Below are positions 7,301 through 37,906 of a stretch of DNA of 43,523 bases, piece by piece. The position numbers and the translations under genes are program-made. The stretch's first letter is position 1. Each line of letters starts with the position of its first letter. The stretch is from a virus. Taxonomy: Duplodnaviria; Caudoviricetes. The stretch is from positions 1 through 43,523 of IMG/VR virus record IMGVR_UViG_3300030332_000461; one strand, written 5' to 3'. The notes beneath the pieces are model-generated. The model saw nothing but the letters and a program-made list of their open reading frames with translations, ran no database searches and was not told the DNA's origin.

Positions 7301-10300
7301 ATGCCTGCTGGGATAAGAGGAAGGGGGGGTCCACAGGAATCAGCAGGTATGAGCAGGGTGTTGAGGTCCCCAGTCCCCTACATAGCCCCTTACTGAGGAA
7401 TCATACCCCCTCCTGTCCCTGTTGCCAAGACGGGATGAGCAAGATGATTACCCATGCTGGGGGGCTAGGTAGGAAGACGGTTTTACATCATGACCCCCAT
7501 GACATAGACCTCCAAACCGAGGCCGTCTTGGATAGGCTGTTCGAGTTGACAGAGACACTGAGGCGCAGGACTCAGCAGTACACAGAGAAGAAGGAACCTG
7601 ATGAGTTCCTCGAAGGCGAGATGAGGAAGAAGCATCAAGAGATTGAGGATTTGGTGTTGAGGGAGAGTCAAGAGTTGAACAAGGCTCTCGGTACCAGTTA
7701 CAGGGAGGTTTTGGAGAATAAGTCCGGCAGGGACATGGCTCCGTTCGAGTTGGGGTCCTCGGCTCTGACCGAGGAGTCCGAACCGTCGAATACCCCATGC
7801 CCCTTCTGTGCTGAACGGGCCAAAGTAGGGGAACCACCCCTACCGGACTCGGACTCCTTGGGTGTTCCCAACCTCGGAGATGAGGACGGGTATCATGGTG
7901 CGGGCTTCCTCGGCACTCCCCAAGGATGCCCCAATGACCCACACATCGAGGATGGACAGAGGATATTCGAGCAGTTGGATGAGATTCGTTATGCATCACC
8001 CGATATGAGGCGTGTTATCGAGGCTAGTTGGAACAGAGGTCCCCTCATCTCGGACTTGGAGAGTCTCCACCCTAAGATTCGGAAGAGGGGAGGGCCTGAT
8101 GAGGCAGAGTCCTATTCACCCATCCACCCCCAGACCGTGGGTGATTTGGGTTTCGGGAGATGGGCTGCTCTAAGGAGGAGAGGTGGGAAACCCACTCCTG
8201 ACGAGAGGTTCGAGCACAAGTTCCAGTCGAGATACATCGCCACAGAGATGCAGAACTCGAATCCCACAGAGACCCATCTCACAGACACCGCTAGGGAGAA
8301 TTACTCCCACGGTGAGCGCTTCCTAGACCGTATAGAGCATGAGGGGATTCTCGAGGAAGATGATGAGAAACTGAAAGAGTTGTATGCCATACACACACTC
8401 ATACCGGATTATCTCGGTCATCTGCATTACAATCCCTTGCAACTGACTGGTGATGGCGATACTGACCAGCAGAGATGGGCTAGGCGAGTGCTGGGTCTGA
8501 AGAAGGGAGAAACAGTTGGAGAGGAGATGAGGAACAAGTTCAAGCATAACCTACATCTGATTGAACCCCTCTTGGTCCTAGAGAAGGAGTGGGCACGGAA
8601 TTACCTAGCCCCTCGGGAGGAGATGCTGGAGAAGGAGTGGCCGTCCTCGATATTCAACACCGATGAGTCGAAGCAGCCCTTCCTCAAAGAGGATGACCTG
8701 CACAGGGTGTTCGGGGAGTTGAGAGGCCATTACCGAGATTGCCAAGAGTATCTGATGCATGGTTTCCTCTCTGCTGACCACCACGGCTTAATGCCTAGTG
8801 CCAATCACTTCCCAGACCTATTGCTCTTCATGAATAACCCCGATTGCCCTCCAGAGTTGGCTCAGGCTTGGATGGACCATCACCCAGGTCTGAGTACCCC
8901 TGGCAATGACTGGTACGAGAATTATGGGGGGATGTGGGCCACTGAGGGGAGGACCATGAAGGAGATGCAGCCGATAGCCGATGCGATTTGGTCTGCTGCA
9001 CTCGGTGGACGAGGAGAAGAGTACCCGGAATCATACGAAGACTGGATGGAGGAACAGGGTGAATGGTGGGAAGCCAGGACCAATATATCGACCAAGAGGT
9101 TGTGGGACCGAATCAAGAATATGCTCGAGAGGCGTTCCAGTGACCCGGAGGGCTCGAAGAGGGCACTTCTTGCAGTGCGACCCATAAGGGACAGGACCGC
9201 TATGAACCAGTGGGGCTATCCCACTGGCTGCCCGAACTGTTCGGGGGAGGGCCATGTGGATGCTAGGAAGTTCGTGGAGAGTGCCCCTGCTTTCATCGAC
9301 ATGTACGACGAGAGCGGGGAGGTAGTAGGAGAGGCGTTGGACAGAGAGAGACAGCCCTTACCCAAGGAAGGGGGTACACACCTTCTGACAGACCCCGCTG
9401 CCGTGGAGTTCATGAGAGACCATTCGAGACCATTCCGTCATGCCTCTTGGGAGGAACATCCCGAACACGACATAGACAACCCCAGTTACATAGTTAGTGG
9501 GAAATATCGGATACAGTGCCCAGGCTGCAAAGGCACCCATGTCTGCCCGAGTTGCGACGGTCATACAGGATACCATGCCAGCGAGAGTGGGAAGGAGGCG
9601 ATTCACAGAGTTAGGACATTCCTCGGTGGTGTGAAGAGGGAGTTGTGGGGTAACAAGATGAGTTTCCCACCCAACGAGCAGGACCCTCCGGAACTGATAA
9701 CCGACCCCGATGCGGCCCTAATCAACCAAATGCCTGATGATATCGTGGGGGATTATGTTCTTCCGAGTGACCCCGACGAGACAGGGAGGGCTCCTCCAGG
9801 CTTGATTCCCTCCCCTGGATGGCTATGGCACGAGGAGAAGGATGCTGACGGGAATCCCACAGGGAACATCTTCACCATGAGAGACCCATGGTACTCCAAT
9901 TCCGGTGGGATGGGTACTGGGAGTTCCTTCAACAGGCAGTTACAGCAGATGACATCGGAGGAGTTTTGGGGTGGTGAGGGGGTACCTACTGGTTCCGACG
10001 CGGAGGATAGGAGGAAGGAAGCGGAAGCGAGGAGAGCGGAGGAACTGAAAGAGAGTGCTCGGACCATGGCTGCACCCGACGCTCCGCCTATCCAATGGGA
10101 GGGTGGGAAAAAACCCACCCCTCCTGATGAGTGTCAGTTCCCAGGTTGCACACAACAAATCCCAGTAGGTAGCAGGTTCTGCAGGGAGAAAGCCATGAGA
10201 GAGCATTTCACCACTGGGGCGGGTGGTCTCAAGAGCATGGAACTGGTTCCCTCGGGCTTGGCTGCTCCCAACCACTTGGATTTGATGAACAGCCCCCGTA

Positions 10301-12594
10301 TGAAGGCCGCGATGGGAGAGGGCCTCCCCAGCAAGAACTACTATGGTGGACATGAGGGCATCCAGAGAATGCTGGAGTTGGGTTTCAAGTATGAGGGGAG
10401 CAAGGCATTCGGAGTCAAGAACCACATGCCGCCGGAGAAGTACAGGGCATGGGTCGCAAAGGAGTACGATAAGGTGATGAGTAGAATGCTCCATTTCAGG
10501 GATTCAGATAGGCGTCGGCTGAAGAAACAACTGGAGCATGGTGTCTTGACAGAAGACGAGTATAAGCAGCAATCAACTGATATGGAGGAGGCGTGGTTCG
10601 AGGAGACCAAGGAAGCAGTGGCGGAATGGCATAACTCCCTCGAGAAGTTGGATATGCACATCCCCTATTTCACTCATCCCACTAGCGGGGGTGTAGTCTA
10701 TTCCCCCTTCGACATCTTCGACTCCGGAGCCATTCCGGACGATATGTCCATACTGAACTACATCGAACACGGGTTCGACCCCAATAACCCACAACATAAA
10801 TCATTCATCCAAGGACCAGATGGCAGTCTTGGTTTGATGGGAGTGAGAAGTACCTCCTTCTGCCCCGCTTGTCATGCACAGATGGGTAAGGAGAGTATGG
10901 CTGCGGGTGAGTGCCCTAACTGTGGTCTCAAAGGAGAGAGTGATGTTTGGACAAAGGACCACATCCATCCTGGGAACAAGACCAATGCCGGCCAATTGGG
11001 TTGGTTGGGACCAGCACTAGATGCTAGAGAGGACCTAATCAAGAGGCTCAAGTACATAGCGAATCACATGGATGTCGGTGCGGGTGAGATGGACCCAGCC
11101 TTGGTCAAGTGTGACCGCTGCGGGCAGACTGGTGAGCGAAGGGACAAAGACAACAACCTAGTCCCATGCGGTCACTGCATCGGAATCCCTGGGGCTGGCA
11201 GAGTGACCTTCGGGAACTGGGACAATGCACTCGTCACATACCACAGTCCGGATTATGAGTTGCATGTGGGGACCCCTGGTGGTGATTTCAGGCCGATTAA
11301 GAAGTCCGAAGCGGGTGAAGCACTGAGAGCGTTGAGACTGGGGGCCGGAGGCTCGAGGTTGAATGAGAGACTGTTAGCCGCAGATGCCTTGGAGAGCATC
11401 TACGATGTTACTGAGGCCCCCCTCGAACACATGGATGAAGAGGTGAATGAGAGCGCTGCTGACTGGGCTCAGGCCTATCTGACTGCTGTCACAGACCGGA
11501 ACATGTCAATCCCCACTCTACACAAAGGCTTCCTCAGTAATAATGGTTGGAAACACCGGGTCAAAGTCGGTGAGAAAGAGAGGAGCGTTAAGTTCTCAGG
11601 TGCGAAGAGTGTGGCAAAACAAGTCGCTAGTCTGAACCAACAGTGGGCTAGACAGAGTGGGAGCATGAACCTAAGCGAACTACTGAGGGTCACTGGGGCC
11701 TCTAGCATAGACGACTTGGGGAGTGCTTTGGGGCCCACGACAGAGGTAATGAGGGAGAAGAAGCAGGAGAACTGGAAGGATTCAAGGCTTCTCAAGAGCA
11801 AGTTGAACAAGGCTAACCATGCTATCAAGAGACTCGAAGCCAAATCCAAACTCAACAAGTTCGATGAGACCGCATTGGCCGATGCCCGACTGTTGAAGGC
11901 ATTCTGTAGTTGGACCGATTTCGGGTCTCCCATCGCTAGGATAAACAGAGAGTCTGCTGGTGACAAGGTCTACAGACTGGTCGGTAGGATGAATATAGAT
12001 ACCAACAAGACCATCCGTCATGGTGCGGTATTGTCTAAGGGAGGTGTGACGAGTTCAGAAATGGCTCAAGGGATACTAGATGGGAACTTCAACACCGATA
12101 GCAAGCCGTTCTACCTACCGGATGGTTCAGTGTTCGGTACCGCTGGTAGTGTGTACGCAGGCGCACTCGATAACTTGGATAAACGCATCGAGGGCTCTTT
12201 CCATGTAGGGGAGGATGACTTCGACAGGGACCCCGAGACCGGAGAGGTGAGAGTTGATGAGTTCGGGGAGCCCAAGTTGGTCTCATCCAAGGATAGTGCT
12301 GTGATGAGGGATTCCATCTTCACTCCCGCGGCAATGCATGATGAGGCTGTTAGGGCCCACAGGGAGGGCAGGCACGAACACGCCCAGCAGTACCTTACCC
12401 ACATAGGGAATGCCTTACAGGGTACTGGTCTGAAGGCACCCACAGTCGATGATATCCAATCTAGTAGTTTTGAGTCACCTGGGGGAGTAGAAGGTGATGA
12501 TGATTCAGATTACAACGCTTATCTTCCTAAAGCAGAGGGCTCGCCCGTAGAGGTCGCTTGGGATAATATTCTCAAGAATCTCAAACCATTGTGA
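4363..12594 (+). CDS. Giant 2743-aa protein with many CxxC / DnaJ-type CxxCxGxG zinc-finger motifs and tags at both termini
   Basis: 8.2-kb open frame; CGECKGTG, CPVCHGS, CPNCSGEG, CPGCKGT, CPSCDG, CDRCGQTG and others; PIESSWEILK near the N-terminus, PVEVAWDNILK at the C-terminus. Confidence 0.85.
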   Translation: MVAPRLQQNVLVDPIESSWEILKGLMLKNLRVEPPSETEKVLIEQLADCDTESATNILKSIHDEKLLVRLQEIVDNCDANFNLVRDDPNAVRIIDAMSDEDGEPSFNPEAYNALAHATSEAAHNHHQRTMGREQHMSDRGILELTHHKDRKVAALWEMRCRELAMEHPNQFEPEKAREVARLESQIEKLHGSEKTRKSARAMMYGKDEGTSDEEKVEEHLWEQCKLKILKEYYRDRAAYDVIRHMRGEKHHEPDCIYDHLGEEGCSCPTVMETKRKAIPLDAEVDEGLQQRTRQSVLDLSNILYEYTRLKPRDEGNVEPRVNRIEHWWKETPSDQRKLILGQMVDMGHGTHLPMLPIVLEGWNVGLQEREDFLRYISDFEGRKAKLERRGYGKARDPSIIGNWGSRDLFDFLSASTGAGAFESTSLDPDDSLESDSESREEAAGPVKDAPKEDTSTGVGQTASGEIGVESAKTTSIPFQTFKQIWFSRDADERQEMANEWLSGLQQRVDDSAGVNPKHKPGEPEHLTKGQMERMLAHQKMGVDIMWPATSSGKLENMEAARQGLAEMREDRSDAFDNKSRAAGVTPEVMRFAIQELAWLRDSKDGRDWGDLRDALYDFSGDEKTEIDDILDSKKGRIALNMLLRQGKREFEEAGVEPELVRCDVCEDSPTPGKWKRRNQIVDCPKCGDSHTPGYMPLYSTQAASDAQKREVVLGMEADLARLDAVHTRHIHDAAMDANFTEECGECKGTGRDPFDRRDSCGSCSEGQIINLKSFLRDIIGKKALGLKPEEALHAIICSAESTHSVLNYRLRERQQKRDIANLEKFGIMPDGVQVMLHLNRLHINGGTLSSENLLNMRRQVIEENPNAGFRKIKRGIGERLKKAFTFIDQTHNDQGEHRGLYLRHAMHSPFIADLLDILADNPDMSRASGVIEQRLSNHLRKVNHPNRFETRPEMKVCPVCHGSKKKKDYQTGQFLDQSCDACWDKRKGGSTGISRYEQGVEVPSPLHSPLLRNHTPSCPCCQDGMSKMITHAGGLGRKTVLHHDPHDIDLQTEAVLDRLFELTETLRRRTQQYTEKKEPDEFLEGEMRKKHQEIEDLVLRESQELNKALGTSYREVLENKSGRDMAPFELGSSALTEESEPSNTPCPFCAERAKVGEPPLPDSDSLGVPNLGDEDGYHGAGFLGTPQGCPNDPHIEDGQRIFEQLDEIRYASPDMRRVIEASWNRGPLISDLESLHPKIRKRGGPDEAESYSPIHPQTVGDLGFGRWAALRRRGGKPTPDERFEHKFQSRYIATEMQNSNPTETHLTDTARENYSHGERFLDRIEHEGILEEDDEKLKELYAIHTLIPDYLGHLHYNPLQLTGDGDTDQQRWARRVLGLKKGETVGEEMRNKFKHNLHLIEPLLVLEKEWARNYLAPREEMLEKEWPSSIFNTDESKQPFLKEDDLHRVFGELRGHYRDCQEYLMHGFLSADHHGLMPSANHFPDLLLFMNNPDCPPELAQAWMDHHPGLSTPGNDWYENYGGMWATEGRTMKEMQPIADAIWSAALGGRGEEYPESYEDWMEEQGEWWEARTNISTKRLWDRIKNMLERRSSDPEGSKRALLAVRPIRDRTAMNQWGYPTGCPNCSGEGHVDARKFVESAPAFIDMYDESGEVVGEALDRERQPLPKEGGTHLLTDPAAVEFMRDHSRPFRHASWEEHPEHDIDNPSYIVSGKYRIQCPGCKGTHVCPSCDGHTGYHASESGKEAIHRVRTFLGGVKRELWGNKMSFPPNEQDPPELITDPDAALINQMPDDIVGDYVLPSDPDETGRAPPGLIPSPGWLWHEEKDADGNPTGNIFTMRDPWYSNSGGMGTGSSFNRQLQQMTSEEFWGGEGVPTGSDAEDRRKEAEARRAEELKESARTMAAPDAPPIQWEGGKKPTPPDECQFPGCTQQIPVGSRFCREKAMREHFTTGAGGLKSMELVPSGLAAPNHLDLMNSPRMKAAMGEGLPSKNYYGGHEGIQRMLELGFKYEGSKAFGVKNHMPPEKYRAWVAKEYDKVMSRMLHFRDSDRRRLKKQLEHGVLTEDEYKQQSTDMEEAWFEETKEAVAEWHNSLEKLDMHIPYFTHPTSGGVVYSPFDIFDSGAIPDDMSILNYIEHGFDPNNPQHKSFIQGPDGSLGLMGVRSTSFCPACHAQMGKESMAAGECPNCGLKGESDVWTKDHIHPGNKTNAGQLGWLGPALDAREDLIKRLKYIANHMDVGAGEMDPALVKCDRCGQTGERRDKDNNLVPCGHCIGIPGAGRVTFGNWDNALVTYHSPDYELHVGTPGGDFRPIKKSEAGEALRALRLGAGGSRLNERLLAADALESIYDVTEAPLEHMDEEVNESAADWAQAYLTAVTDRNMSIPTLHKGFLSNNGWKHRVKVGEKERSVKFSGAKSVAKQVASLNQQWARQSGSMNLSELLRVTGASSIDDLGSALGPTTEVMREKKQENWKDSRLLKSKLNKANHAIKRLEAKSKLNKFDETALADARLLKAFCSWTDFGSPIARINRESAGDKVYRLVGRMNIDTNKTIRHGAVLSKGGVTSSEMAQGILDGNFNTDSKPFYLPDGSVFGTAGSVYAGALDNLDKRIEGSFHVGEDDFDRDPETGEVRVDEFGEPKLVSSKDSAVMRDSIFTPAAMHDEAVRAHREGRHEHAQQYLTHIGNALQGTGLKAPTVDDIQSSSFESPGGVEGDDDSDYNAYLPKAEGSPVEVAWDNILKNLKPL

Positions 12595-12671: not shown

Positions 12672-13232
12672 ATGGCATCGTCAAATCTACCACCGCTACA
12701 ACCTAGTGAGACAACCGCTGATGAACTGAGGGTATTGGGGTTAATCACCTTCGTTTCCCTACTTGTGGGGTCAACCATCGCTGTGTTTGATTCTGGTCTC
12801 TGGCTCAAAGCCGGTGATACCCAGACTAACGCTTACACATACGCGATGGCTGCTTTCACCCTACAAGGAATGTCCTTCGTCCTGTACAAGTTACTGATGC
12901 AGGACTCGATGGACCATAAAGCGGGCTTCGCACGCATGGACAGAGAGAGGAGTCGCAGAATGCAGCAAATGCAACAGGAAATGGCTAATCGCCAGATGGA
13001 ACTGGAGATGAGAATGCAAGAAGCGCAGTTCGTTCGACAGATGCAGATGATGGAACACCAGCAAGAATTGGAGTCCACTGGGGCTGATATCACTCAACTG
13101 GGTGATATGCTGGTAATCCCTCAACCTCCTGGCCCTCCCCAGCATGGCGCAGAGGAGAAAGGTTCTATTGACTTGGGCCCGTCCGACAACCAGCCACGAA
13201 GTGCTGGTGGGCAGTTCGCCAAGAAGGTGTAG
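12672..13232 (+). CDS. Membrane protein (two predicted TM helices) with Gln/Met-rich coiled coil
   Basis: GGGTGAGG SD; hydrophobic VLGLITFVSLLVGSTIAVF and YAMAAFTLQGMSFVLY; RMQQMQQEMANRQMELEMRMQ coil. Confidence 0.8.
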   Translation: MASSNLPPLQPSETTADELRVLGLITFVSLLVGSTIAVFDSGLWLKAGDTQTNAYTYAMAAFTLQGMSFVLYKLLMQDSMDHKAGFARMDRERSRRMQQMQQEMANRQMELEMRMQEAQFVRQMQMMEHQQELESTGADITQLGDMLVIPQPPGPPQHGAEEKGSIDLGPSDNQPRSAGGQFAKKV

Positions 13233-13236
13233 TTGA

Positions 13237-13482
13237 ATGGGATGGCTTTTCAAGACTCCCAGTGATGATGCCACTGAAGCGACTCTCAAAGCCCTTCATT
13301 GGCAGAACACACTCGATAATTACTACGAGTACAGTTGGGGATGGTTCAGAACTGTCCTTTTCACTATAGGGGCAGTATTCATCACTTCGGCTGTAGAGAG
13401 CAATGCTAGTATCAGTATATGGGAGAATACAGTAGATTCCTTCATCACATGGGCTCAGGAGACAGTCGGCGGTTGGGTGTAA
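13237..13482 (+). CDS. Small membrane protein
   Basis: 81 aa; hydrophobic WGWFRTVLFTIGAVFITSAV; tightly packed in the cluster. Confidence 0.7.
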   Translation: MGWLFKTPSDDATEATLKALHWQNTLDNYYEYSWGWFRTVLFTIGAVFITSAVESNASISIWENTVDSFITWAQETVGGWV

Positions 13483-13488
13483 GCGTGC

Positions 13489-14205
13489 ATGGCGATTGGC
13501 GGTTCCGTCTTGATGGCAGCGGTAGTATTCGGAAACGACCTCTACAACTACATGAAACCGCGCAGGTTGGGGATATACGGCCCAACCATGGTAGGGAAGA
13601 CCACCTTGGACATGTTCATGACGACACCAGGAGAGATGGCCGATGTCGAGGACAGGACCACTCATTCAGAGAGGCTACTAGGGTCAGGGCATGTTCTACC
13701 TCAACCCACTCGCAAGAGGATACGATACAAGGGGGAGAAGAGAGTAATACACTCATCAGACCTAGGAGGACAACAACGATTCTGGAATCTTTGGATAGAC
13801 GACATGGTGGAGAGGCAGGTCGAAATGGTCATCTTCATGATAGACGACAGGGCTCAGAATGGGAACGGCTCAGATACCATCGACGCAGTGGGAGGGCTGG
13901 AGTATCTCGTAGACGCCTTAATCGACAGGAGATGGAAGTATCGAAGTCTCAGGAGTCGATGGAAAGGACAGAAATACGCCCCCAAACAAATATGGGTTGT
14001 AGCAAACAAGGCAGACCTATGGTGGGACCAGAAGGCCAATATCTTGTGGCAATCTCAACGGCTGAGGGAACATCCTATATTCAACCCCTACCGACCAGCA
14101 ATGGTGAAACTCCAGAAGGCAGGCATCCCCTGTCGAGTGAGCATGATGGCCACCAAGATAGGCTGGAATGTGGAACAGACTCTGGTAGATATGCTAACAT
14201 GGTGA
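13489..14205 (+). CDS. Ras-superfamily (Arf/Rab-like) small GTPase with hydrophobic N-terminus
   Basis: G1 GPTMVGKTT (13579-13605), G2 candidate Thr in DRTT, G3 DLGGQ (13759-13773), G4 NKAD (14005-14016), G5-like MATKIGWNVEQ. Confidence 0.88.
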   Translation: MAIGGSVLMAAVVFGNDLYNYMKPRRLGIYGPTMVGKTTLDMFMTTPGEMADVEDRTTHSERLLGSGHVLPQPTRKRIRYKGEKRVIHSSDLGGQQRFWNLWIDDMVERQVEMVIFMIDDRAQNGNGSDTIDAVGGLEYLVDALIDRRWKYRSLRSRWKGQKYAPKQIWVVANKADLWWDQKANILWQSQRLREHPIFNPYRPAMVKLQKAGIPCRVSMMATKIGWNVEQTLVDMLTW

Positions 14206-14209
14206 CAAT

Positions 14210-15226
14210 ATGGTGATGAACCCGTTCGGACAACCCTCAGAACTACCCCCATTGGGGTCTTACAACAGCCAGCAGATGCTACAGATAGCCGGTAACTCAC
14301 AGGTGCCGTTAGCGCAATTGAGAGAGATGGCCCAGGCTCAGACCTATATGCAGGAAGCAGCAATGCAGACTCATATCGAGATACCCAAGGTCAATTTCTA
14401 CCCATCGAACCATGGTAACCTCAAGAAGGCTCGAAGGTCTGATATCCGCCAAGCCTACAGACTCCTCACCCCCACCAAGCGGAGATTGTGGTCTCCACGC
14501 AGATGGTGGTTCGGTGGAAAGTACCAGTATTCCGGGGACGCCACCCACTGCTGCATCGACGGCTGTGATGTGGATAATCTGATGAGGGCTGCTGGTAATG
14601 TCTATGATATGATTAAGGATGAGGAGACTGGGAAGTCTCTTTGGGACCTATATTTCACAGACCCCGTGAGTGGGGAGTCAAGAGGCTTCCAGGCTCGTGA
14701 GGGTGTGACCAGTGGTAGAATAGTTAGAGGGACATACTGTCCTGAGCACCTTCATCTCTATCACCTGCTCTTGAAGTGGGAGACTGCGGAACAGGATGAG
14801 GAGGATGGGACTACAAGCACCCTCAAGTCCAGGCTGAACAAAGGTGTTTCCATGGTCACTGTCCCAGTGGCTGGTATGGCTGGTGGGGTGATAGGGAAGG
14901 ACAATACCCCCCTTCCATTGCAGAGGTACCAGCCATTCTTCAATATGATGAAGGAGGACAATATCCCTGTAGTGAGATTGCAGAATGTGGACGGTAACAA
15001 TGACCTAACTGTAGTTGTCTTCGATATGAGACAGTTCGAGACAGGGGTCAATTCTAGACTCATCAATGAGGCCATTCTCAATAGTGGTTCTAGTTCTGGG
15101 GCACCCACTATGGGTCTCGGAGAACTGTTAGCACAGACAGCACCTCAGACGGAAACTTCAACTGTGCCACCTCCTACGCAAGAGATGATGGACACTGCTG
15201 AGGCTATGCAAGGGGTGGTCGAATGA
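14210..15226 (+). CDS. Hypothetical protein in the GTPase cluster, possibly metal-binding
   Basis: 338 aa; HCCIDGC and YCPEHLH motifs; starts 4 nt after the GTPase stop. Confidence 0.75.
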   Translation: MVMNPFGQPSELPPLGSYNSQQMLQIAGNSQVPLAQLREMAQAQTYMQEAAMQTHIEIPKVNFYPSNHGNLKKARRSDIRQAYRLLTPTKRRLWSPRRWWFGGKYQYSGDATHCCIDGCDVDNLMRAAGNVYDMIKDEETGKSLWDLYFTDPVSGESRGFQAREGVTSGRIVRGTYCPEHLHLYHLLLKWETAEQDEEDGTTSTLKSRLNKGVSMVTVPVAGMAGGVIGKDNTPLPLQRYQPFFNMMKEDNIPVVRLQNVDGNNDLTVVVFDMRQFETGVNSRLINEAILNSGSSSGAPTMGLGELLAQTAPQTETSTVPPPTQEMMDTAEAMQGVVE

Positions 15227-15855
15227 GTTGGTGGCAATCCAGTCAATCAGCGACTCCTGCTCCACTAGGATTACCTGGTGGTCAACAAACAATGTCCGCT
15301 TATGGGGCGACTGACCCTTATGCTAATCCGTATGGTGCAATGGGCGCAGGGATGATGGGGGGGATGGGATACCAATATCAACAGGCACCACCTTTGGCCC
15401 CTCCGAGCGATTTGGAAGTGATGGCTGCTCTTATACAGACTAGCGTGCCCGTGGACAGATGGTTCGCTGGCCCTAATCTAGATGTGTTAGTTGCTTTGAT
15501 GTACAAAATCAGTGCTCTTGCCACTGTGGAGACTCTGAAGAATGCTACTCTTGTAGAGACTGACGATGGTAAGTTGAAGTTCGAGTTCGTGGACGCAACA
15601 CTCCTCCCCACTGTTGACAGTGTGACGATGGAGAACAACACCCTCGCTACAGCGGCTCAGACCTCCATAACTGCGGCTCACCAGCAACAGCAGGCTATAC
15701 TCAATATGGTTCAGCAGAACCTGATGAGTGATGCACTTGGTGCTGCCATGGCTAACCCTGGCTTTATGCAGAATGTTGGTAGTACCATCGGCAATGTCTT
15801 CAGAGGTGCTGTAGGATTACCACAACCAGTTTCAACACTCCCCCCAACGATGTGA
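15223..15855 (+). CDS. Hypothetical Gln/Met/Gly-rich protein
   Basis: ATGA overlap with upstream gene; GGGGTGG SD; 210 aa. Confidence 0.75.
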   Translation: MSWWQSSQSATPAPLGLPGGQQTMSAYGATDPYANPYGAMGAGMMGGMGYQYQQAPPLAPPSDLEVMAALIQTSVPVDRWFAGPNLDVLVALMYKISALATVETLKNATLVETDDGKLKFEFVDATLLPTVDSVTMENNTLATAAQTSITAAHQQQQAILNMVQQNLMSDALGAAMANPGFMQNVGSTIGNVFRGAVGLPQPVSTLPPTM

Positions 15856-15859
15856 TTAG

Positions 15860-16126
15860 ATGAAAGGCACTAGTATGAACCCCTTACAGTTCATCCCCAT
15901 TGACAGTGTCGTGTATGGCATACATGACATGACTAATGTGAAGAAGTCTTCACTGATTGACATGATAATGGTGCAGGTCATCAGTATCACCCTAGGTGCA
16001 TTCCTGATGATAGCCTTCAATGCCAATGACATGAGGCAGACTGAACTCACATATTCGATGGCTATTCTGTTCACCAGTCTATTGCTGACCGGAGCCGTCT
16101 ACCGCAGACTCTCCGACAGAGGCTGA
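15860..16126 (+). CDS. Small two-TM membrane protein (holin-like size and topology)
   Basis: 88 aa; MIMVQVISITLGAFLMIAF and YSMAILFTSLLLTGAVY, followed by a basic RR tail. Confidence 0.7.
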   Translation: MKGTSMNPLQFIPIDSVVYGIHDMTNVKKSSLIDMIMVQVISITLGAFLMIAFNANDMRQTELTYSMAILFTSLLLTGAVYRRLSDRG

Positions 16127-16396
16127 CCACTTCCCTATTGGGCACTCGCTATTCGTGAGTTTAGTCTTGTAATTGAGAAAGCATCTACAGAGGTTACAAC
16201 GCGTCCCGGTTTTGTGTTCACAAGAGTCACAAATCAGTAGCCTCTCCCTCTGTTCTTTGTCAGTCACATGATTAGCCCTGATGATATCACCAGCGGCCAT
16301 CCTCAAATCTGAAATTGTGGAGGCCAGGGTGGCTTTCTCCGACACGGTTGCAGCCGTGTGTGTCGCTACTGTAGGTGCCCGCCCTAGACCTCGCAC
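16079..16396 (-). CDS. Small Cys-rich protein (DUF6171-like pattern)
   Basis: RLLICDSC...RCNLCRCFLNYKTKL...CPIGKW follows a widespread phage R-L-x-x-C-x-x-C...C-x-x-C-x-C...CP-x-x-KW pattern; only credible minus-strand gene; start uncertain. Confidence 0.65.
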   Translation of the reverse strand: MRGLGRAPTVATHTAATVSEKATLASTISDLRMAAGDIIRANHVTDKEQRERLLICDSCEHKTGTRCNLCRCFLNYKTKLTNSECPIGKWSASVGESAVDGSGQQ

Positions 16397-16449: not shown

Positions 16450-17139
16450 ATGGGCGAACGCGTTACTCGGTCTTCTTGCCGTCTCTGTCAAGATGATGAC
16501 AGGGATTTATTGGAGGAAGGGCTGCTCCAAGGGGGCATAATCCCGAAGCAGTTAGACAAGGACAAGAACTGGCGTGAGGGTACCTCAGACCGCCATTTCA
16601 GAAACCACATGGGAGAGTTTCACATGGGGTCTAACAGTGATTGTGTGATATGCACGCACCCTGAGAGGTTCGAGTTCGAGAACGCCTATTTCCTAGGTGG
16701 TATGAGCAGTGACGCCATCGCCGAGGCCATCGGGTGTAGTGAGTCCACAGTGTATCACCACATCCGACACCATCTCAAACCACTGGTTCAGAAGACTGCG
16801 GCTCCTCTTGTGGCGATACGGACGGGAGAGGAAATGGGCAGTCTTAGGTCCAATGTCGAGAGACTGAATGGGGAATTGGGGGTCTTCTTGGATGATGCTG
16901 ACCGAAATGACCCCTCTTATGTGAAGAACATAACCGCCTTGCACAGAGAAGTTAGGGAGACTCTAGGTCTGATGCTCAAATTACAGGAGAAGACTATAGG
17001 AGATGTACAGCAGACCATACAGGCTGATACTGTGAACATACTCAAGGTAGAACTCGCTAAGGAGTCACCAGAGGTTTGGAAGAGGATTCGCAACAAATTA
17101 CTCCAAGAGGACGAGGTGGTGGAGATAGATGAGAGGTGA
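16450..17139 (+). CDS. Zinc-finger/HTH protein, putative terminase small subunit
   Basis: Two CxxC...HxxxH units (CRLC..HFRNH; CVICTHPER..SSDAIAEAIGCSESTVYHHIRHH, HTH-like), then a coiled coil; upstream of the large terminase. Confidence 0.5.
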   Translation: MGERVTRSSCRLCQDDDRDLLEEGLLQGGIIPKQLDKDKNWREGTSDRHFRNHMGEFHMGSNSDCVICTHPERFEFENAYFLGGMSSDAIAEAIGCSESTVYHHIRHHLKPLVQKTAAPLVAIRTGEEMGSLRSNVERLNGELGVFLDDADRNDPSYVKNITALHREVRETLGLMLKLQEKTIGDVQQTIQADTVNILKVELAKESPEVWKRIRNKLLQEDEVVEIDER

Positions 17140-20721: not shown

Positions 20722-21888
20722 ATGGACAATATGGATGCCGCTTGGCAGTTCTTGAAGGACTATCCAACATACATCCCCGGTGTAGAAGGTGAAGGGGGGA
20801 TGAACACCCCACAGTGGTTACCAGAGATGCCGGGGGTTTCAGACAGAACATGGCATGACAGGTTCACAGACCCAGGCACTAAGGCTAGAATGAGGGCCTA
20901 CAAGTTGCAACAGGCGAAGTTCGCACAACAGATGCGTGACTGGTATAGGGACAGTAGGATGTCGGGACCCACGGATGAGCCTTTGTTTGAAGCAGGGCCA
21001 AATCAGTGGGGGCGGTCTAGGGACTGGTTCCATTCACCCGGTGACAAACCAAGGCTTGTGACTGCTGATGTTGACACGGACGACCCTGAGCACAAGAGGG
21101 CTAAGCCGTATGCAGCAGGTGAGGTTCTACCTAGGAACATCTTCGGCGAGGGCGGCTATCTACAGGGTCTAGCCAATTGGTTACATGGAAATGACACTGC
21201 CAAATATGGTAGGGAGAGGGGAATGGCAGCACTTAGGGACTCACCTAGGGAGTTCCCAGTTGAGCCCGAGGAAGAAAAGCCCGAGGAAGAAAAGCCCGAG
21301 GAAGAAAAGCCCGAGGAAGAAAAGCCCGAGGAAGAAAAGACCCCTAGAGAGAGGAGGAGTGAGAAGACTCTAGAAAATGCAACTAGTAACTTAGAGGATG
21401 ATTGGCACGAGGGCTTCAACAAGGAAGGTGAACACCATCCTGAAGACCAGAGTTGGGGTGTTTACGGGGACAAACTCAAACTCGTTCACAAGAACAATTT
21501 CACAGTTGACCCACCGGAGTCCGGTAGAGATAACTTGCATAATTTCATGGACAACAAACTCCTAGGTGGCAAAAAAGGCCCAAAGGCCTACTACAAAGTC
21601 CATATGAAGGAGAAATTAACAAAACTGTTCAAAGAGAATCCTAAGGCTGGAATCAAGTGGCTGCGTGCCCACCCTGGGTGGGAAGAGGCAATTCCAGACG
21701 ACTTCGTATGGAGGGATATGGGTACGGCGTCGCAAGAGAGTGGGAATAAGAACAAGGATATGGAGCCACCGGACAAACCACCACCAGTGGAAGGAGGGTC
21801 GAAGATTACTGATGATGAAGATGTGTCTCTTTCCGTCGACCAACTGGACCCCATGGATACCGCTTGGGCCGTATTGAAACTGGGGTGA
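20722..21888 (+). CDS. Hypothetical protein with tags at both termini and PEEEK repeats (start re-assigned from 20644)
   Basis: ATG 20722 just after the upstream stop; MDNMDAAWQFLK ... DPMDTAWAVLKLG-stop. Confidence 0.8.
   Translation: MDNMDAAWQFLKDYPTYIPGVEGEGGMNTPQWLPEMPGVSDRTWHDRFTDPGTKARMRAYKLQQAKFAQQMRDWYRDSRMSGPTDEPLFEAGPNQWGRSRDWFHSPGDKPRLVTADVDTDDPEHKRAKPYAAGEVLPRNIFGEGGYLQGLANWLHGNDTAKYGRERGMAALRDSPREFPVEPEEEKPEEEKPEEEKPEEEKPEEEKTPRERRSEKTLENATSNLEDDWHEGFNKEGEHHPEDQSWGVYGDKLKLVHKNNFTVDPPESGRDNLHNFMDNKLLGGKKGPKAYYKVHMKEKLTKLFKENPKAGIKWLRAHPGWEEAIPDDFVWRDMGTASQESGNKNKDMEPPDKPPPVEGGSKITDDEDVSLSVDQLDPMDTAWAVLKLG
21265..21339 (+). repeat. Perfect 15-bp tandem repeat x5 (cccgaggaagaaaag) encoding (PEEEK)5
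   Basis: Read directly from the sequence. Confidence 0.95.
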
Positions 21889-23297
21889 TTTGCTTGGTTG
21901 ATACTGAAACTAAGGATGTCATTGAGGATATCGACTGGGAGATGTCCAAGAGGGACTTCAAGTTCTTCTTCGAGGAGATACTGGGCTGGCAGTTGGCTGA
22001 CCACCATGCCAAGTGGTTCCATAACCTCAACACTCACAACAGGTACTGTGTGAAAGCAGCCCGTGACCATGGAAAATCTACTCTCTTCATAGGGTACATA
22101 CTTTGGAAGGCGGTATTCTGCGTTAGGACAGACATCATGATATTCAGCCACAGTCTAGACCAGTCGATTCGCCACATGAGAAATCTCAATGACTTGATAG
22201 ACAGTAGTCCCATGCTGGCTAAGATGAAGGACAAGGACGCTTGGTCCAAGACCTTCTTCGGATTCACCAACGGCTCTCGAATCACCGCCAAGTCAGTGGG
22301 TGGTGGTGTTCGTGGTGCTCACCCTGATATCGTTCTCCTAGACGACATCCTGTGGGGGACTACAGAGACCGAATTGCAGAGAGTAGCCTCTTGGTTCTAT
22401 GAGGTCATGGTACCAACGGTCCACCACACCGCCCAGTTGTGCATAGTCGGCACACCATTCACCCCTACTGACCTGTACACAGAACTAGAGCAGAGGGATG
22501 GTTACTTGGTTGAGACATATCCAGCAATCAACGAGGCTGGTGAGCCTCTTTGGCCATGGCGTTGGTCGTTAGAGGCTCTCGATGCTCGAAGGATGGACAT
22601 GCCAGCCATAGCCTTCACCCGTGAATATCTCTGTGAGCCCATGGACGATATGTCCAGCCTGTTCCCCTCTACCATTGTCAGTGCTTGTAAGGACCCCTAT
22701 CTCACTCTTCTAGATAGAAGGGAGAAGGATTCCGATGACCAATATTTCATCGGTTGGGACCCAGCCATCTCATCTGACCGTGGGGCTGACTTCACCGTGA
22801 TGCTGGTCTTACGAAGGCCCTCTGATAACCCCGAGTTGTTGGAATTGGTCCATGTAGTGAGAAGGAAGGGTATGGATTTCCGCACTCAGATTTTTGAGAT
22901 TCAACGACTCAACAACCGATTCCAGCCTGATGTGATTGAACTCGAGGCCAACCATTTCCAGCGTGTGTTCGCCACAGAACTGAGGGCTGACACCGACCTT
23001 CCTATCAAGACATTCATCAGTACCAAGCAGAGGAGGGAGAGCCTTCTTATGGGATTGGTCCTACGCTTCGAGCGCGAGCAGATGCGTCTGCCATGGGGAG
23101 ATGAGAGGTCTCGTGACCTCATCAGCCAATTGGAGCACGAACTCATCATGTTTGGTATGACGAAACAGGGTAAGTTGGAGACTATTGCTCGCCACGATGA
23201 CTTTGCTATAGCCCTCGCTTTGGCTGTTTGGGCCACCACCGAGTTCCGTGAGAGAATTGTAGATTTGGATGACTTGATGCAGGGGCTGATAGATTGA
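21864..23297 (+). CDS. terL: Terminase large subunit
   Basis: Walker A AARDHGKST, Walker B IVLLDD, motif IVGTP, RNase H-like nuclease IGWDPA ... HDDFAIALALA; true start probably TTG 21894 after the GGGGTGA SD. Confidence 0.95.
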   Translation: MGRIETGVICLVDTETKDVIEDIDWEMSKRDFKFFFEEILGWQLADHHAKWFHNLNTHNRYCVKAARDHGKSTLFIGYILWKAVFCVRTDIMIFSHSLDQSIRHMRNLNDLIDSSPMLAKMKDKDAWSKTFFGFTNGSRITAKSVGGGVRGAHPDIVLLDDILWGTTETELQRVASWFYEVMVPTVHHTAQLCIVGTPFTPTDLYTELEQRDGYLVETYPAINEAGEPLWPWRWSLEALDARRMDMPAIAFTREYLCEPMDDMSSLFPSTIVSACKDPYLTLLDRREKDSDDQYFIGWDPAISSDRGADFTVMLVLRRPSDNPELLELVHVVRRKGMDFRTQIFEIQRLNNRFQPDVIELEANHFQRVFATELRADTDLPIKTFISTKQRRESLLMGLVLRFEREQMRLPWGDERSRDLISQLEHELIMFGMTKQGKLETIARHDDFAIALALAVWATTEFRERIVDLDDLMQGLID

Positions 23298-35363: not shown

Positions 35364-36764
35364 ATGCTGTTGATGGAGGCACCTCTAGACACTCCGATTT
35401 TGCTGAAAGGCAGAACTGGTGACCTTGTTGTTGCAGGCTATGCTTCGGTGGAGATGGTCGATAAGCAAGGTGACCTCATTACGAAGGAAGCGCTCCGAGA
35501 AGCATTCAACAAGTTCATGAAATCACCTGGGTTTAGGAATGTGCAACTAGCACACTCTAACATTCAAGTCGGTTCCGTTATTCCGAAGTACACTGACTCT
35601 AGTGACCGTGTTTGGAAGTCAGAGGTGGATGATACCGGCATGTTCGTAGTCATTCAACTCCGTGATGATATCGAAAAGGCGCGAGAAGTTGCTGCTGAAA
35701 TCCGAAAGGGGAAACTGAAGTCTTTCTCCATAGGTGGGCAGGCCTTCGAGCGCGTTAACAAGAGTAACTCCGAGAGAGGAGATTACCGAGAAATACGCAG
35801 GATGGAACTGCACGAGGTTACCATCTGCGAGAAGGGCATCAATCCAGAGGCCCAATTCCGAATCCTCAAAGAGGACAAAACTGAAACAAAAAAAGGTGAT
35901 AATGAAATGACAGATGCAATGACTGAACTGCAAACTGTCCTAGAACGGTTGTCTAAGAGGTTGGATGAGGTCGATGAGACCGATGAGACCACCCTAAAGG
36001 CCAAGGAGGAGGCTGCGAAGGCAGCCCCCGAAGAGGCTGACAAGGAAGACACCGCGAAGGGCAAGGATGCAAAGGATAAAGACAAAGATGTCGAGGATTC
36101 CGAGAAGTCTGATGCGGAGAAGACCGAAAAGATGGATGATGTGATAACCACAGAATATCTTGATTGGCTGGAGTCGACTGTGAAGTCCGCTGGGTACGAC
36201 CCATCGGCTGCTCGCGGTCACTTCGAGGAGGAGGGTGTCGAGAAGGCATACCTCCAAGAGGGTGCCCATGGCTACGACCATCGTGGACAGGGCAGCATCG
36301 AAGGTGCTGGTGAAGATGATTCGGGGAAGCGACCCAAGATGAACATGGGCGCTGGACCGAGTGGGAACAAGACGGTTATCAAGACCGACGAGTTCATCAG
36401 CCCAGAAATGGTCACTACCGCACAGATTGAGGAAGCCTACGAAGTCTACAAGGCTGCTGCTCTCGAGCAACAGTTCAAGACTGACTTAGGTAATGAGTTC
36501 TCGATTAGACTGCAGAAAGAGGTCCAGGCCAAGGACAGTGAGAGTGACCGAGCAAGATTTGATGCTCGTGGACCCCTCCAAGACCTACAGAAGGCTGTTC
36601 TAGCCCTAGGTGATAGGATTGAGAACTTGGCTTCTGAACCTGGGGAGGACTTCCGTAAGTCCGATTCTGCCGGTGTCACTATTCCCGAAACTACTGAACT
36701 GGCCCAAATGTCGTGGGACGATGTCCACCGACTGGCTTTTTCAGCACTAAGGAGTGATGAGTGA
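35364..36764 (+). CDS. Prohead protease (HK97 type) fused to a scaffold-like C-terminal region
   Basis: VAGYASVEMVDKQGD, catalytic His candidate in QLAHSN, Ser in KSFSIGG, ELHEVTICEKGINPEA; then a long acidic coiled-coil region; immediately before the MCP. Confidence 0.9.
   Translation: MLLMEAPLDTPILLKGRTGDLVVAGYASVEMVDKQGDLITKEALREAFNKFMKSPGFRNVQLAHSNIQVGSVIPKYTDSSDRVWKSEVDDTGMFVVIQLRDDIEKAREVAAEIRKGKLKSFSIGGQAFERVNKSNSERGDYREIRRMELHEVTICEKGINPEAQFRILKEDKTETKKGDNEMTDAMTELQTVLERLSKRLDEVDETDETTLKAKEEAAKAAPEEADKEDTAKGKDAKDKDKDVEDSEKSDAEKTEKMDDVITTEYLDWLESTVKSAGYDPSAARGHFEEEGVEKAYLQEGAHGYDHRGQGSIEGAGEDDSGKRPKMNMGAGPSGNKTVIKTDEFISPEMVTTAQIEEAYEVYKAAALEQQFKTDLGNEFSIRLQKEVQAKDSESDRARFDARGPLQDLQKAVLALGDRIENLASEPGEDFRKSDSAGVTIPETTELAQMSWDDVHRLAFSALRSDE
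35907..36764 (+). CDS. Putative scaffold protein from an in-frame internal start
   Basis: AGGTGA SD (35894-35899) 7 nt before in-frame ATG 35907, right after the protease domain. Confidence 0.55.
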   Translation: MTDAMTELQTVLERLSKRLDEVDETDETTLKAKEEAAKAAPEEADKEDTAKGKDAKDKDKDVEDSEKSDAEKTEKMDDVITTEYLDWLESTVKSAGYDPSAARGHFEEEGVEKAYLQEGAHGYDHRGQGSIEGAGEDDSGKRPKMNMGAGPSGNKTVIKTDEFISPEMVTTAQIEEAYEVYKAAALEQQFKTDLGNEFSIRLQKEVQAKDSESDRARFDARGPLQDLQKAVLALGDRIENLASEPGEDFRKSDSAGVTIPETTELAQMSWDDVHRLAFSALRSDE

Positions 36765-37906
36765 TGGCGCGTAATTATGTAAGGACAATACAGGACATGG
36801 AGCGATACTACTACGGTGGTACCGCATTGACCGGGTACACCTACAGCAGTGGAGACATACTCAAGGCGGACGCACCGCTTCTGAGCACCACCGCTGGTAC
36901 CTACCAGGCAATCTATGGCAGGAAGGTTTGGTCGCAGTTGAACCAAGAGTTCAACGCGTTCAGCATCCTACCAAAGAAGCCGTGGGAGCGAAGTGGATGG
37001 CGCATCATAACTGCCAAGCCTTCGTTCGATGTTGGTGGAGGTCTGGCTGAGAACGCCACACTACCCGACACCACGAAGCCTGACTTCCTGCATGTGGCTG
37101 CAAAGCCGAAGACCATTGGACACTCGTTCGACCTGAGCGAAGTGTCCATGTTCCTTTCTGATAAGGACGATGGTCTCGGAGATGTGCGCCAAGTGCTCAA
37201 GGAAGAGATGGGGAAGCATCACGCTGACCACATCAACAGGATGCTACTGGTAGATGTCGACACACCCTCTGGGAACGACCTCGAGTCACTGGACCGTCTA
37301 ACCACGGACCCGGACAAGATGATTGTTGCCACAGGACATGTGAGTGCTATGACGGACCACGACCTATATTCTATCACACGCGATGGGAGTTCAGACTTCC
37401 ACAGTGCTGAGGTGGATGTTGACGAGACACAGACTGCGGTGAACAGAAACCTAAGCCTGAATCAACTGGACGGATTGTTCCAGCAGATTTGGGTTCGTGG
37501 TGGTAACCCCAAGGTCATGCTGACTGGGTACGATACCCTAATGCGTGTGCAGCAACTGCTGCAGAGCCAACAGAGGTTCATGGAATCGAAGCGGGTCACC
37601 CCCACCTACAACGGTGTGAAGGGTGTTCCTGGTCTCGAGGCCGGATTCATTGTGGCTACCTACAACGGTGTGCCGCTGATTCCGTCCAAGGATGTGACGA
37701 CTGACGGTATTGGAAGGATTTACTACTTCGATACTGACTATCTGTGGTTCCAAACTGCTATCCCGACCCAATACTTCGAGTCGGGTATCGAAACCGGCGA
37801 CCCGTTCGCCATCAACAGACTAGGCCAGGAAGGCCTCTACCGCACCATGGGTGAGGTATGGGACTCCTTCTTTGGTGCAGGAGGTTCTATCCGTGACCTT
37901 AAGTGA
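36761..37906 (+). CDS. Major capsid protein (HK97 fold)
   Basis: 381 aa after protease/scaffold; capsid-type segments FSILPKKPW, GGLAENATLP, KPKTIGHSFDLS, YNGVPLIPSKDV; likely start ATG 36764 after the GGAGTGA SD. Confidence 0.88.
   Translation: MMARNYVRTIQDMERYYYGGTALTGYTYSSGDILKADAPLLSTTAGTYQAIYGRKVWSQLNQEFNAFSILPKKPWERSGWRIITAKPSFDVGGGLAENATLPDTTKPDFLHVAAKPKTIGHSFDLSEVSMFLSDKDDGLGDVRQVLKEEMGKHHADHINRMLLVDVDTPSGNDLESLDRLTTDPDKMIVATGHVSAMTDHDLYSITRDGSSDFHSAEVDVDETQTAVNRNLSLNQLDGLFQQIWVRGGNPKVMLTGYDTLMRVQQLLQSQQRFMESKRVTPTYNGVKGVPGLEAGFIVATYNGVPLIPSKDVTTDGIGRIYYFDTDYLWFQTAIPTQYFESGIETGDPFAINRLGQEGLYRTMGEVWDSFFGAGGSIRDLK

Follow-up and report, generated by a model that had tools for sequence, protein, structure and literature searches.

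A small GTPase gene, its conserved neighbours and an open second frame in a likely magrovirus-like tailed virus

The GTPase gene and its family

The stretch of DNA analysed here, called the window throughout, comprises the 43,523 nucleotides of the viral record IMGVR_UViG_3300030332_000461 (Duplodnaviria; Caudoviricetes). On its plus strand, positions 13489..14205 encode a small GTPase-fold protein of 238 residues, recognised by its open reading frame (ORF), its motifs, a structural model and alignment. The gene stands in a run of hydrophobic-protein and orphan genes that we call the cassette, and it is covered by a second frame, shifted by -1, that contains no stop. This open -1 frame is new in the present analysis; neither it nor the conserved cassette was noticed in the first-pass annotation, which was made from the sequence alone and proposed a virus-encoded, membrane-associated small GTPase with an intact set of catalytic motifs.

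The 238-codon ORF and its G1, G3, G4 and G5 motifs are real, and all the motifs that the annotation quoted occur in this ORF. A hydrophobic helix (residues 2-22) precedes G1 (31-39, GPTMVGKTT, of the form GxxxxGKT), G2 (T57), G3 (91-94), a basic insert (143-166), G4 (173-176, NKAD) and G5 (220-222); the switch II stretch DLGGQQRFWNLW covers residues 91-102 and ATKIGWNVEQ residues 221-230. T57, missing from the earlier list, is invariant and likely G2. The motifs follow the order typical of the Ras superfamily (TRAFAC class), that is G1 GxxxxGK[ST], a G2 Thr, G3 DxxG, G4 NKxD and an SA[KT]-like G5, which reads MAT in clade A, the viral clade of the window protein, and SAK in clade B, a second viral clade. 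None of 100,000 shuffles of the protein gave ordered G1, G3 and G4 patterns. The gene is under purifying selection, with nonsynonymous to synonymous rate ratios (dN/dS) of 0.045 and 0.060 against two close relatives.

These proteins are a real and conserved family of divergent, virus-specific small GTPases. The window GTPase matched 473 of 1015 candidate proteins and has matches in 148 viral and 509 metagenome stretches. Clade B is 30-34% identical to clade A; a clade B query matched 401 of 695 candidates and 264 viral stretches, and the two protein sets may overlap. Clade B includes gp088 of Poseidoniales virus YSH_150918, an exemplar of the virus taxonomy committee ICTV, where it is labelled hypothetical; some other members are labelled 'GTPase SAR1 family protein' in JGI records. 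When records were chosen by their capsid gene alone, 10 of 20 contained a GTPase match, lying 20-23 kb upstream of the capsid gene. Three of the ten others are halovirus-like, one of them complete; in six, no more than 15.3 kb precedes the capsid gene, and the last, with 22.8 kb, may be a true miss. Neither HCTV-1 nor vir335 gave a GTPase match. Both matches in GTDB are short contigs bearing the viral cassette. Magrovirus-type contigs (L082, L083, L097, L098) were also found binned in a Maricaulis metagenome-assembled genome (MAG), with three gene copies, and in a Promethearchaeati MAG, and might there be taken for GTPases of cells or of Asgard archaea.

Across a two-clade alignment of 50 sequences, G31, G36, K37, T38, T39, T57, D91, G94, W99, W102, N173, K174 and D176 are invariant. 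The residue after DxxG, by contrast, varies: in 187 distinct clade A proteins it is Q in 84, E in 74, D in 21, H in 5, N in 1 and a gap in 2, and in clade B it is E in 181 of 181. Thus, the binding determinants G1 to G4 have been kept and the catalytic Gln has not, so that the annotation's retained Gln is a property of the window copy rather than of the family. The Arf-type switch II pattern DxGGQ..R.xW that it cited fits only in part; the Gln is there, but the Arg stands two residues after it and the Trp 11 after the Asp. In the Arf family, Gln at this position is usual though not universal. We consider it very likely that the viral protein binds GTP. Since the switch II Gln usually gives way to Glu or Asp, the protein would hydrolyse GTP slowly by itself or need a partner.

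An AlphaFold2 model built on 59 sequences (predicted local distance difference test, pLDDT, 76.2; predicted template-modelling score, pTM, 0.74) contains the N-terminal helix at 2-22 followed by a G-domain core. The grouping with ATPases that would have refuted the annotation did not occur; the modelled fold is nearest Arl8, Asgard ArfR1, Rag and SRbeta. Foldseek placed Rab and Ras at the top (E 4e-8; template-modelling, TM, scores 0.35-0.48), and giant-virus Rabs first in its viral structure library (E 2e-7). VIA-align ranked LokiRagO (14.1), SRbeta (13.3), Arf6 (13.2), Gs-alpha (12.7) and Sar1 (12.6) highest among 48,161 representatives, and over the Foldseek top 1000 it gave Arl8 14.9, HodArfR1 13.9, GerdArfR1 13.7, Arl1 13.6 and Gtr1 13.5, the best Rab reaching 11.8. 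The model thus predicts a Ras-superfamily G-domain fold, on the Arf/SRbeta/Rag side and in a family of its own. The profile searches that the annotation had suggested gave mixed results: among the 50 members, MMR_HSR1 (26), Roc (24), Ras (21) and SRPRB (18) matched at E<=0.1, but Arf did so in only 6 (best E 0.0007), and the window GTPase itself scored 14.8 bits against Arf, under the curated cut-off of 22.3. Profile matches in the PDB were Rab33B (0.0025), GerdArfR1 (0.015) and KRas (0.024), and NCBIfam returned nothing beyond its generic small_GTP model.

Cellular relatives are distant. Against 201 genomes from the phylum of a Promethearchaeati MAG, with at most 14 candidates scored per genome, the viral profile matched 44 at E<=0.01, one of them a misbinned viral contig. 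The best cellular match to a two-clade profile reached 45 bits (E 1.5e-11 per genome), with Arf as its top Pfam family, and the next, at 36 bits, were zinc-ribbon Arf-like proteins with DxGGQxxFWxLW. In 301 genomes of one bacterial phylum, misbinned contigs aside, matches stayed at 16 bits. A phylogeny with Asgard proteins, also proposed at first pass, joined the viral clades (93/80) and did not clearly nest them among the Arf-like rows; in this tree of 41 rows (19 viral and 22 archaeal, without eukaryotic sequences) the deeper split had support of 53/87 and the branches were long.

Could the viral GTPase nonetheless be a true member of the Arf family, taken from an Asgard ArfR-like gene, with an amphipathic helix that flips out on GTP? 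We think this rather unlikely. Arl8 and ArfR1, its best structural matches, do stand about 3 and 2 Z units above Rab, but Rag and SRbeta lie within about 1 Z of them, and Rab and Ras were ranked first by Foldseek and by sequence profile. The top cellular profile matches belong to Pfam Arf, some with DxGGQxxFWxLW, but Arf ranks below four other families in the viral members themselves, and the tree does not clearly place the viral group within Arf. An N-terminal amphipathic helix defines the Arf family, according to a preprint (bioRxiv 10.1101/2024.02.28.582541). The viral protein has a predicted N-terminal helix and the Trp at D+11, but its N-terminus is far more hydrophobic. The highest 15-residue hydropathy before strand 1 is 2.06 in the window protein, with clade medians of 1.6 (n=183) and 1.86 (n=179), against -0.58 in Asgard Arf-like proteins (the 6 of 10 long enough to score). 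Peak hydrophobic moments are similar, at about 0.5: residues 14-24 have the moment of Asgard Arf-like ends, whereas residues 1-13 are evenly hydrophobic (0.06-0.12). The annotation's hydrophobic segment is borne out; the first 16 residues carry no charge, and neighbouring gene products are hydrophobic too. A standing anchor seems to us as likely as an Arf-style toggle.

A second frame open across the GTPase gene

The -1 frame runs for 243 codons at 13485..14216 on the plus strand, from a GTG that lies 4 nt before the GTPase ATG to a stop that overlaps an ATG of the next gene (TGATG); it is additionally open back to an ATG at 13419. Its product of 243 residues, 36 of them Arg, would be hydrophilic (grand average of hydropathy -1.26) and rich in Arg, Gly, Ser and Glu, and has no Pfam match. 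At the 62 sites where a third-position T would create a stop in this frame, none does. The codon usage of the other window genes predicts 14.8 stops, and none of 5000 simulations was stop-free; no comparable open run in 19 other window genes exceeds 91 codons.

Among 118 distinct clade A genes the frame is fully open in 30, has one stop in 2, two stops in 1, and 7-43 stops in the remaining 85; in clade B each of 80 genes has at least 14. The 30 were selected by openness, so that their lack of stops holds by definition. The start codon is an independent signal: a GTG or TTG lies exactly 4 nt before the GTPase ATG in 30 of 30 open genes and in 6 of 65 closed ones, a further 20 closed genes having no ATG nearby. 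Open frames with this start span 242-245 codons. The 30 open genes and the two with a single stop form two lineages (100/99 each) for which a single origin is not rejected (approximately unbiased test, p-AU 0.48), in a tree of 43 of the 118 rows from which the window's own row was dropped as a near-copy. Thus, an open frame in 30 of 118 genes, always with the -4 start, suggests an overprinted gene, and both signs by which we judged overprinting, a second frame stop-free beyond chance and a conserved start, were found.

We are highly confident that selection has kept the 243-codon frame open in the window's lineage. The opposite view, that openness is an unselected by-product of codon bias, starts from the low third-position T of the GTPase gene (0.11 versus 0.21-0.33 in other window genes), from an open set defined by the absence of stops, from synonymous divergence that is not clearly reduced, and from an unrelated gene of the closed lineage (L045) that has merely 2 stops. 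We hold it to be very improbable. A stop-free frame has a probability of 0.0002 even under the codon usage of the GTPase gene itself, and T persists at 10-37% before AC, AT, GC, GG and GT in open genes, so that solely the stop-making contexts have been emptied. Open genes differ at about half of their synonymous sites (28-60% in the pairs compared), the -4 start codon was no part of how the set was chosen, and in these genomes the next gene has a closed -1 frame (median 10.5 stops in 600 nt). The L045 gene has 8 stops in its +1 frame and no -4 start codon.

The openness of the frame seems to be under stronger selection than its sequence. The -1 products are 67-68% identical where the GTPases are 91-92% identical, and 40-44% where these are 74-75%; synonymous divergence of open genes is not clearly below that of their neighbours, and closed pairs show an equal dip. 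Such a pattern fits a disordered protein or a device of translation control. With its start 4 nt ahead of the GTPase ATG and its end where the next gene begins, the frame may yield a disordered basic protein, or may draw ribosomes away and thereby fix how much GTPase is made relative to partner.

The cassette and the virus that carries it

Gene counts for the cassette refer to 80 clade A and 80 clade B loci. In the window, all on the plus strand, it begins with a 186-residue protein (12672..13232; 78/80 loci) that has an N-terminal hydrophobic segment and a Gln/Met-rich stretch and is likely a membrane protein. An 81-residue protein follows (13237..13482; 79/80), possibly membrane-bound, whose moderately hydrophobic middle segment stays under the 1.5 cut-off. 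Downstream of the GTPase lies a 338-residue orphan (14210..15226; 80/80) in which C114, G118 and TYCPxH (175-180) are invariant over 47 sequences; these residues suggest a likely zinc site, and the protein is a candidate regulator or effector of the GTPase. Then come a Gln/Gly/Met-rich orphan of 210 residues (15223..15855; 80/80) and an 88-residue protein with two hydrophobic segments (15860..16126; 69/80), found in these searches in clade A only. The order of the first four genes and the GTPase is the same in all 78 clade A loci that have all five; the remaining 2 of 80 start at a contig edge. At E<=0.01, neither Pfam nor PHROG gives a match for any plus-strand neighbour in the window's cassette.

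Clade B has homologues (E<0.001) of the two genes downstream of the GTPase in 52 and 55 of 80 loci, that of the 210-residue orphan again lying 3' of the GTPase, and none of the 88-residue gene among its 80 loci at the same threshold. Two small hydrophobic genes precede the GTPase there, in 79 of 80 loci each. In clade A the cassette stands before the terminase block; in clade B it follows the capsid gene at a distance of three small genes. It has therefore moved as a unit. Its genes likely provide membrane-protein surroundings for the GTPase, and they likely give a hint of the way in which these viruses affect the membrane of the host.

The annotation's small GTPase does stand among the late genes of a tailed virus, and the virus itself can be placed. 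The window encodes a large terminase subunit (21864..23297, +), a portal, a prohead protease and a major capsid protein (36761..37906, +) whose best named matches are those of haloviruses HCTV-1 and HVTV-1, at 33% identity. A 118-kb relative with a GTPase 98% identical, of which 32 ORFs were scanned, encodes PolB, an SNF2 helicase, a Cpn60 chaperonin, a clamp-loader-like AAA protein and a PD-(D/E)XK nuclease; SNF2 has been reported for magrovirus group A in PMC5434244. The traits of Magrovirales clade A (Apasviridae-like) are thus all found, the halovirus-like head genes in the window and the PolB replisome, SNF2, chaperonin and genome near 100 kb in the relative. The window is likely a clade A magrovirus-like tailed virus, and its host is likely a member of the Poseidoniales (marine archaea).

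Several other genes nearby deserve mention. Directly 5' of the cassette, a 2743-residue protein (4363-12594) contains numerous CxxC(xG) motifs and matches nothing in Pfam or PHROG; homologues occur in just 4 of 80 loci, at 25-36% identity. A Cys-rich, DUF6171-like protein (16079-16396, minus strand; E 2e-5, below cut-off) is the sole conserved minus-strand gene nearby; in 71 of 80 clade A loci it faces the cassette tail to tail. A helix-turn-helix protein with Cys/His motifs (16450-17139; 80/80) may be a small terminase subunit, despite its distance of 4.7 kb to the large one. Between portal and prohead protease lies a 2327-residue protein (28348-35331) with no family match. In some genomes extra ORFs of 97-211 codons flank the GTPase (L100 5445-5993, L133 6666-6962, L144 5056-5996, and in L062).

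Possible roles and known systems

Our tentative explanation, the one we prefer, is a late GTP switch held on the membrane and working with its cassette, overprinted in this lineage. We envision that the GTPase would be expressed late and held on the host membrane by its N-terminal helix, that the Cys/His protein next door, our first candidate partner for GTP hydrolysis, would regulate it, and that GTPase and small hydrophobic proteins would act together on that membrane, probably for release. These parts do not stand equally firm. The helix probably anchors the GTPase on the host membrane, and joint action with the cassette proteins is likely; that the task is virus release is possible but somewhat doubtful. 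A bolder form, which we consider quite unlikely, would have an Arf-like module of switch, zinc regulator and membrane subunits time and drive the breakage of the archaeal membrane, while a de novo overprinted gene that shares the ribosome-binding site of the GTPase tunes the switch. If true, magroviruses would leave the cell by a system distinct from holins, pyramids and ESCRT budding.

The GTPase and its cassette could instead serve virion assembly or genome entry, as a platform or as packaged proteins ejected into the next cell. The cassette does lie among head genes in both clades, and the Gln/Gly-rich orphans resemble, by their composition, flexible virion proteins; but clade A cassette genes have no PHROG structural match at E<=0.01, and HCTV-1 builds a similar head without a cassette. 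We regard this use as unlikely. Improbable, too, in our judgement, is that the host membrane is reshaped for another end, such as ArvA-like vesicles, a block to superinfection or a stop to cell division. PMC10927574 describes the small GTPase ArvA as needed for vesicles and a zinc-ribbon gene of its operon as the proposed GTPase-activating protein. A likely zinc protein follows the viral GTPase as well, but the viral neighbours match neither DUF2073 nor DUF2072 (Pfam, E<=0.01), and the GTPase has no NCBIfam match other than small_GTP. An Era/OapA-like protein, which we take to be OapA-like, reached only 18 bits against the viral profile.

Several results weigh against a membrane-held switch for release. 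No feature of the cassette points to release in preference to assembly or entry; no neighbour resembles a holin or any named family in Pfam, PHROG or NCBIfam; and HCTV-1 shares the capsid type and lacks a GTPase match, so that this would not be a general release system. Confidence in the model is lowest at the P-loop (residues 36-40, pLDDT <50), TM-scores to small GTPases are only 0.35-0.48, and the GTPase N-terminus does not reach the 19-residue transmembrane cut-off. The upstream hydrophobic genes of the two clades show weak profile likeness (best E 0.0095, probability 4%). Of 118 clade A genes, 85 have a closed -1 frame, as do all 80 of clade B, and the product of the frame shows no clear sequence constraint. 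Finally, no virus of this group is in culture (PMC10768690).

Our literature search found nothing that joins magrovirus and GTPase. The term GTP is absent from the main texts of PMC11706807 (part of the text only), PMC10160649, PMC5434244 and PMC5332604 and from the supplements examined of the first three, as far as the portions covered go, and the ICTV profiles PMC10768690 and PMC12999244 name no GTPase. Work on archaeal viruses mentions an Asgard mobile region with Arf-like GTPases and, speculatively, help from host OapA in budding; titles and opening lines of abstracts yielded nothing relevant on overprinted or overlapping genes of archaeal viruses. How tailed archaeal viruses leave their hosts is called uncharacterised in PMC10791045. 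A cassette kept in two deep magrovirus clades offers named, expressible candidates for a membrane step in abundant ocean viruses. The GTPase family, as a long-isolated branch near Arf, SRbeta and Rag, could inform the origin of membrane-bound switches outside eukaryotes. The second frame, which overlaps the gene throughout and can be compared among many sister genomes, some open and some closed, provides a clean natural example of a gene arising by overprinting in a DNA virus of archaea.

Among known systems, the lysis genes Rz/Rz1 of phage lambda are nested and overprinted, with a second frame inside a gene of a late membrane cassette. In the viruses studied here the second frame covers the gene from end to end, encodes a hydrophilic product in which no lipoprotein-like signal was seen, and occurs in two lineages only. 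Members of the Arf family (human Arl8, 1ZD9 and 8JC5; HodArfR1, 8OUK; GerdArfR1, 8OUM; Arl1; Arf1) are 16-19% identical to the viral GTPase, which differs by its mostly replaced Gln, its longer and much more hydrophobic N-terminus, and inserts before strand 2, after helix 3 (basic/aromatic) and after G4. Identity to Rag/Gtr1, LokiRagO (8YL2) and SRbeta, the signal recognition particle (SRP) receptor's beta subunit (2FH5), is 12%; Rag carries a C-terminal roadblock domain that the viral protein lacks, and no SRP partner gene lies near the viral GTPase. The Rab and Ras proteins of giant viruses are virus-encoded small GTPases as well, but they are 10-17% identical, belong to viruses of eukaryotic hosts and, as listed, stand singly rather than in such a cassette.

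Closer to home, ArvA/OapA of Haloferax volcanii is an archaeal small GTPase with a predicted N-terminal helix, an action on membranes and a zinc-protein gene in its operon. It is cellular and has other partners, the viral GTPase has no match to its family, and the linked DUF2073/DUF2072 genes that mark the ArvA/OapA system were not seen among viral neighbours (Pfam, E<=0.01). The best cellular match is to archaeal GTPases of 212-224 residues (L179-L181, L187-L196) from the phylum of the Promethearchaeati MAG G006. These have no N-terminal helix and other gene neighbours, and their sisterhood to the viral group is unsupported, but they share with it the absence of Gln after G3, a WxxW in switch II and a basic insert after helix 3.
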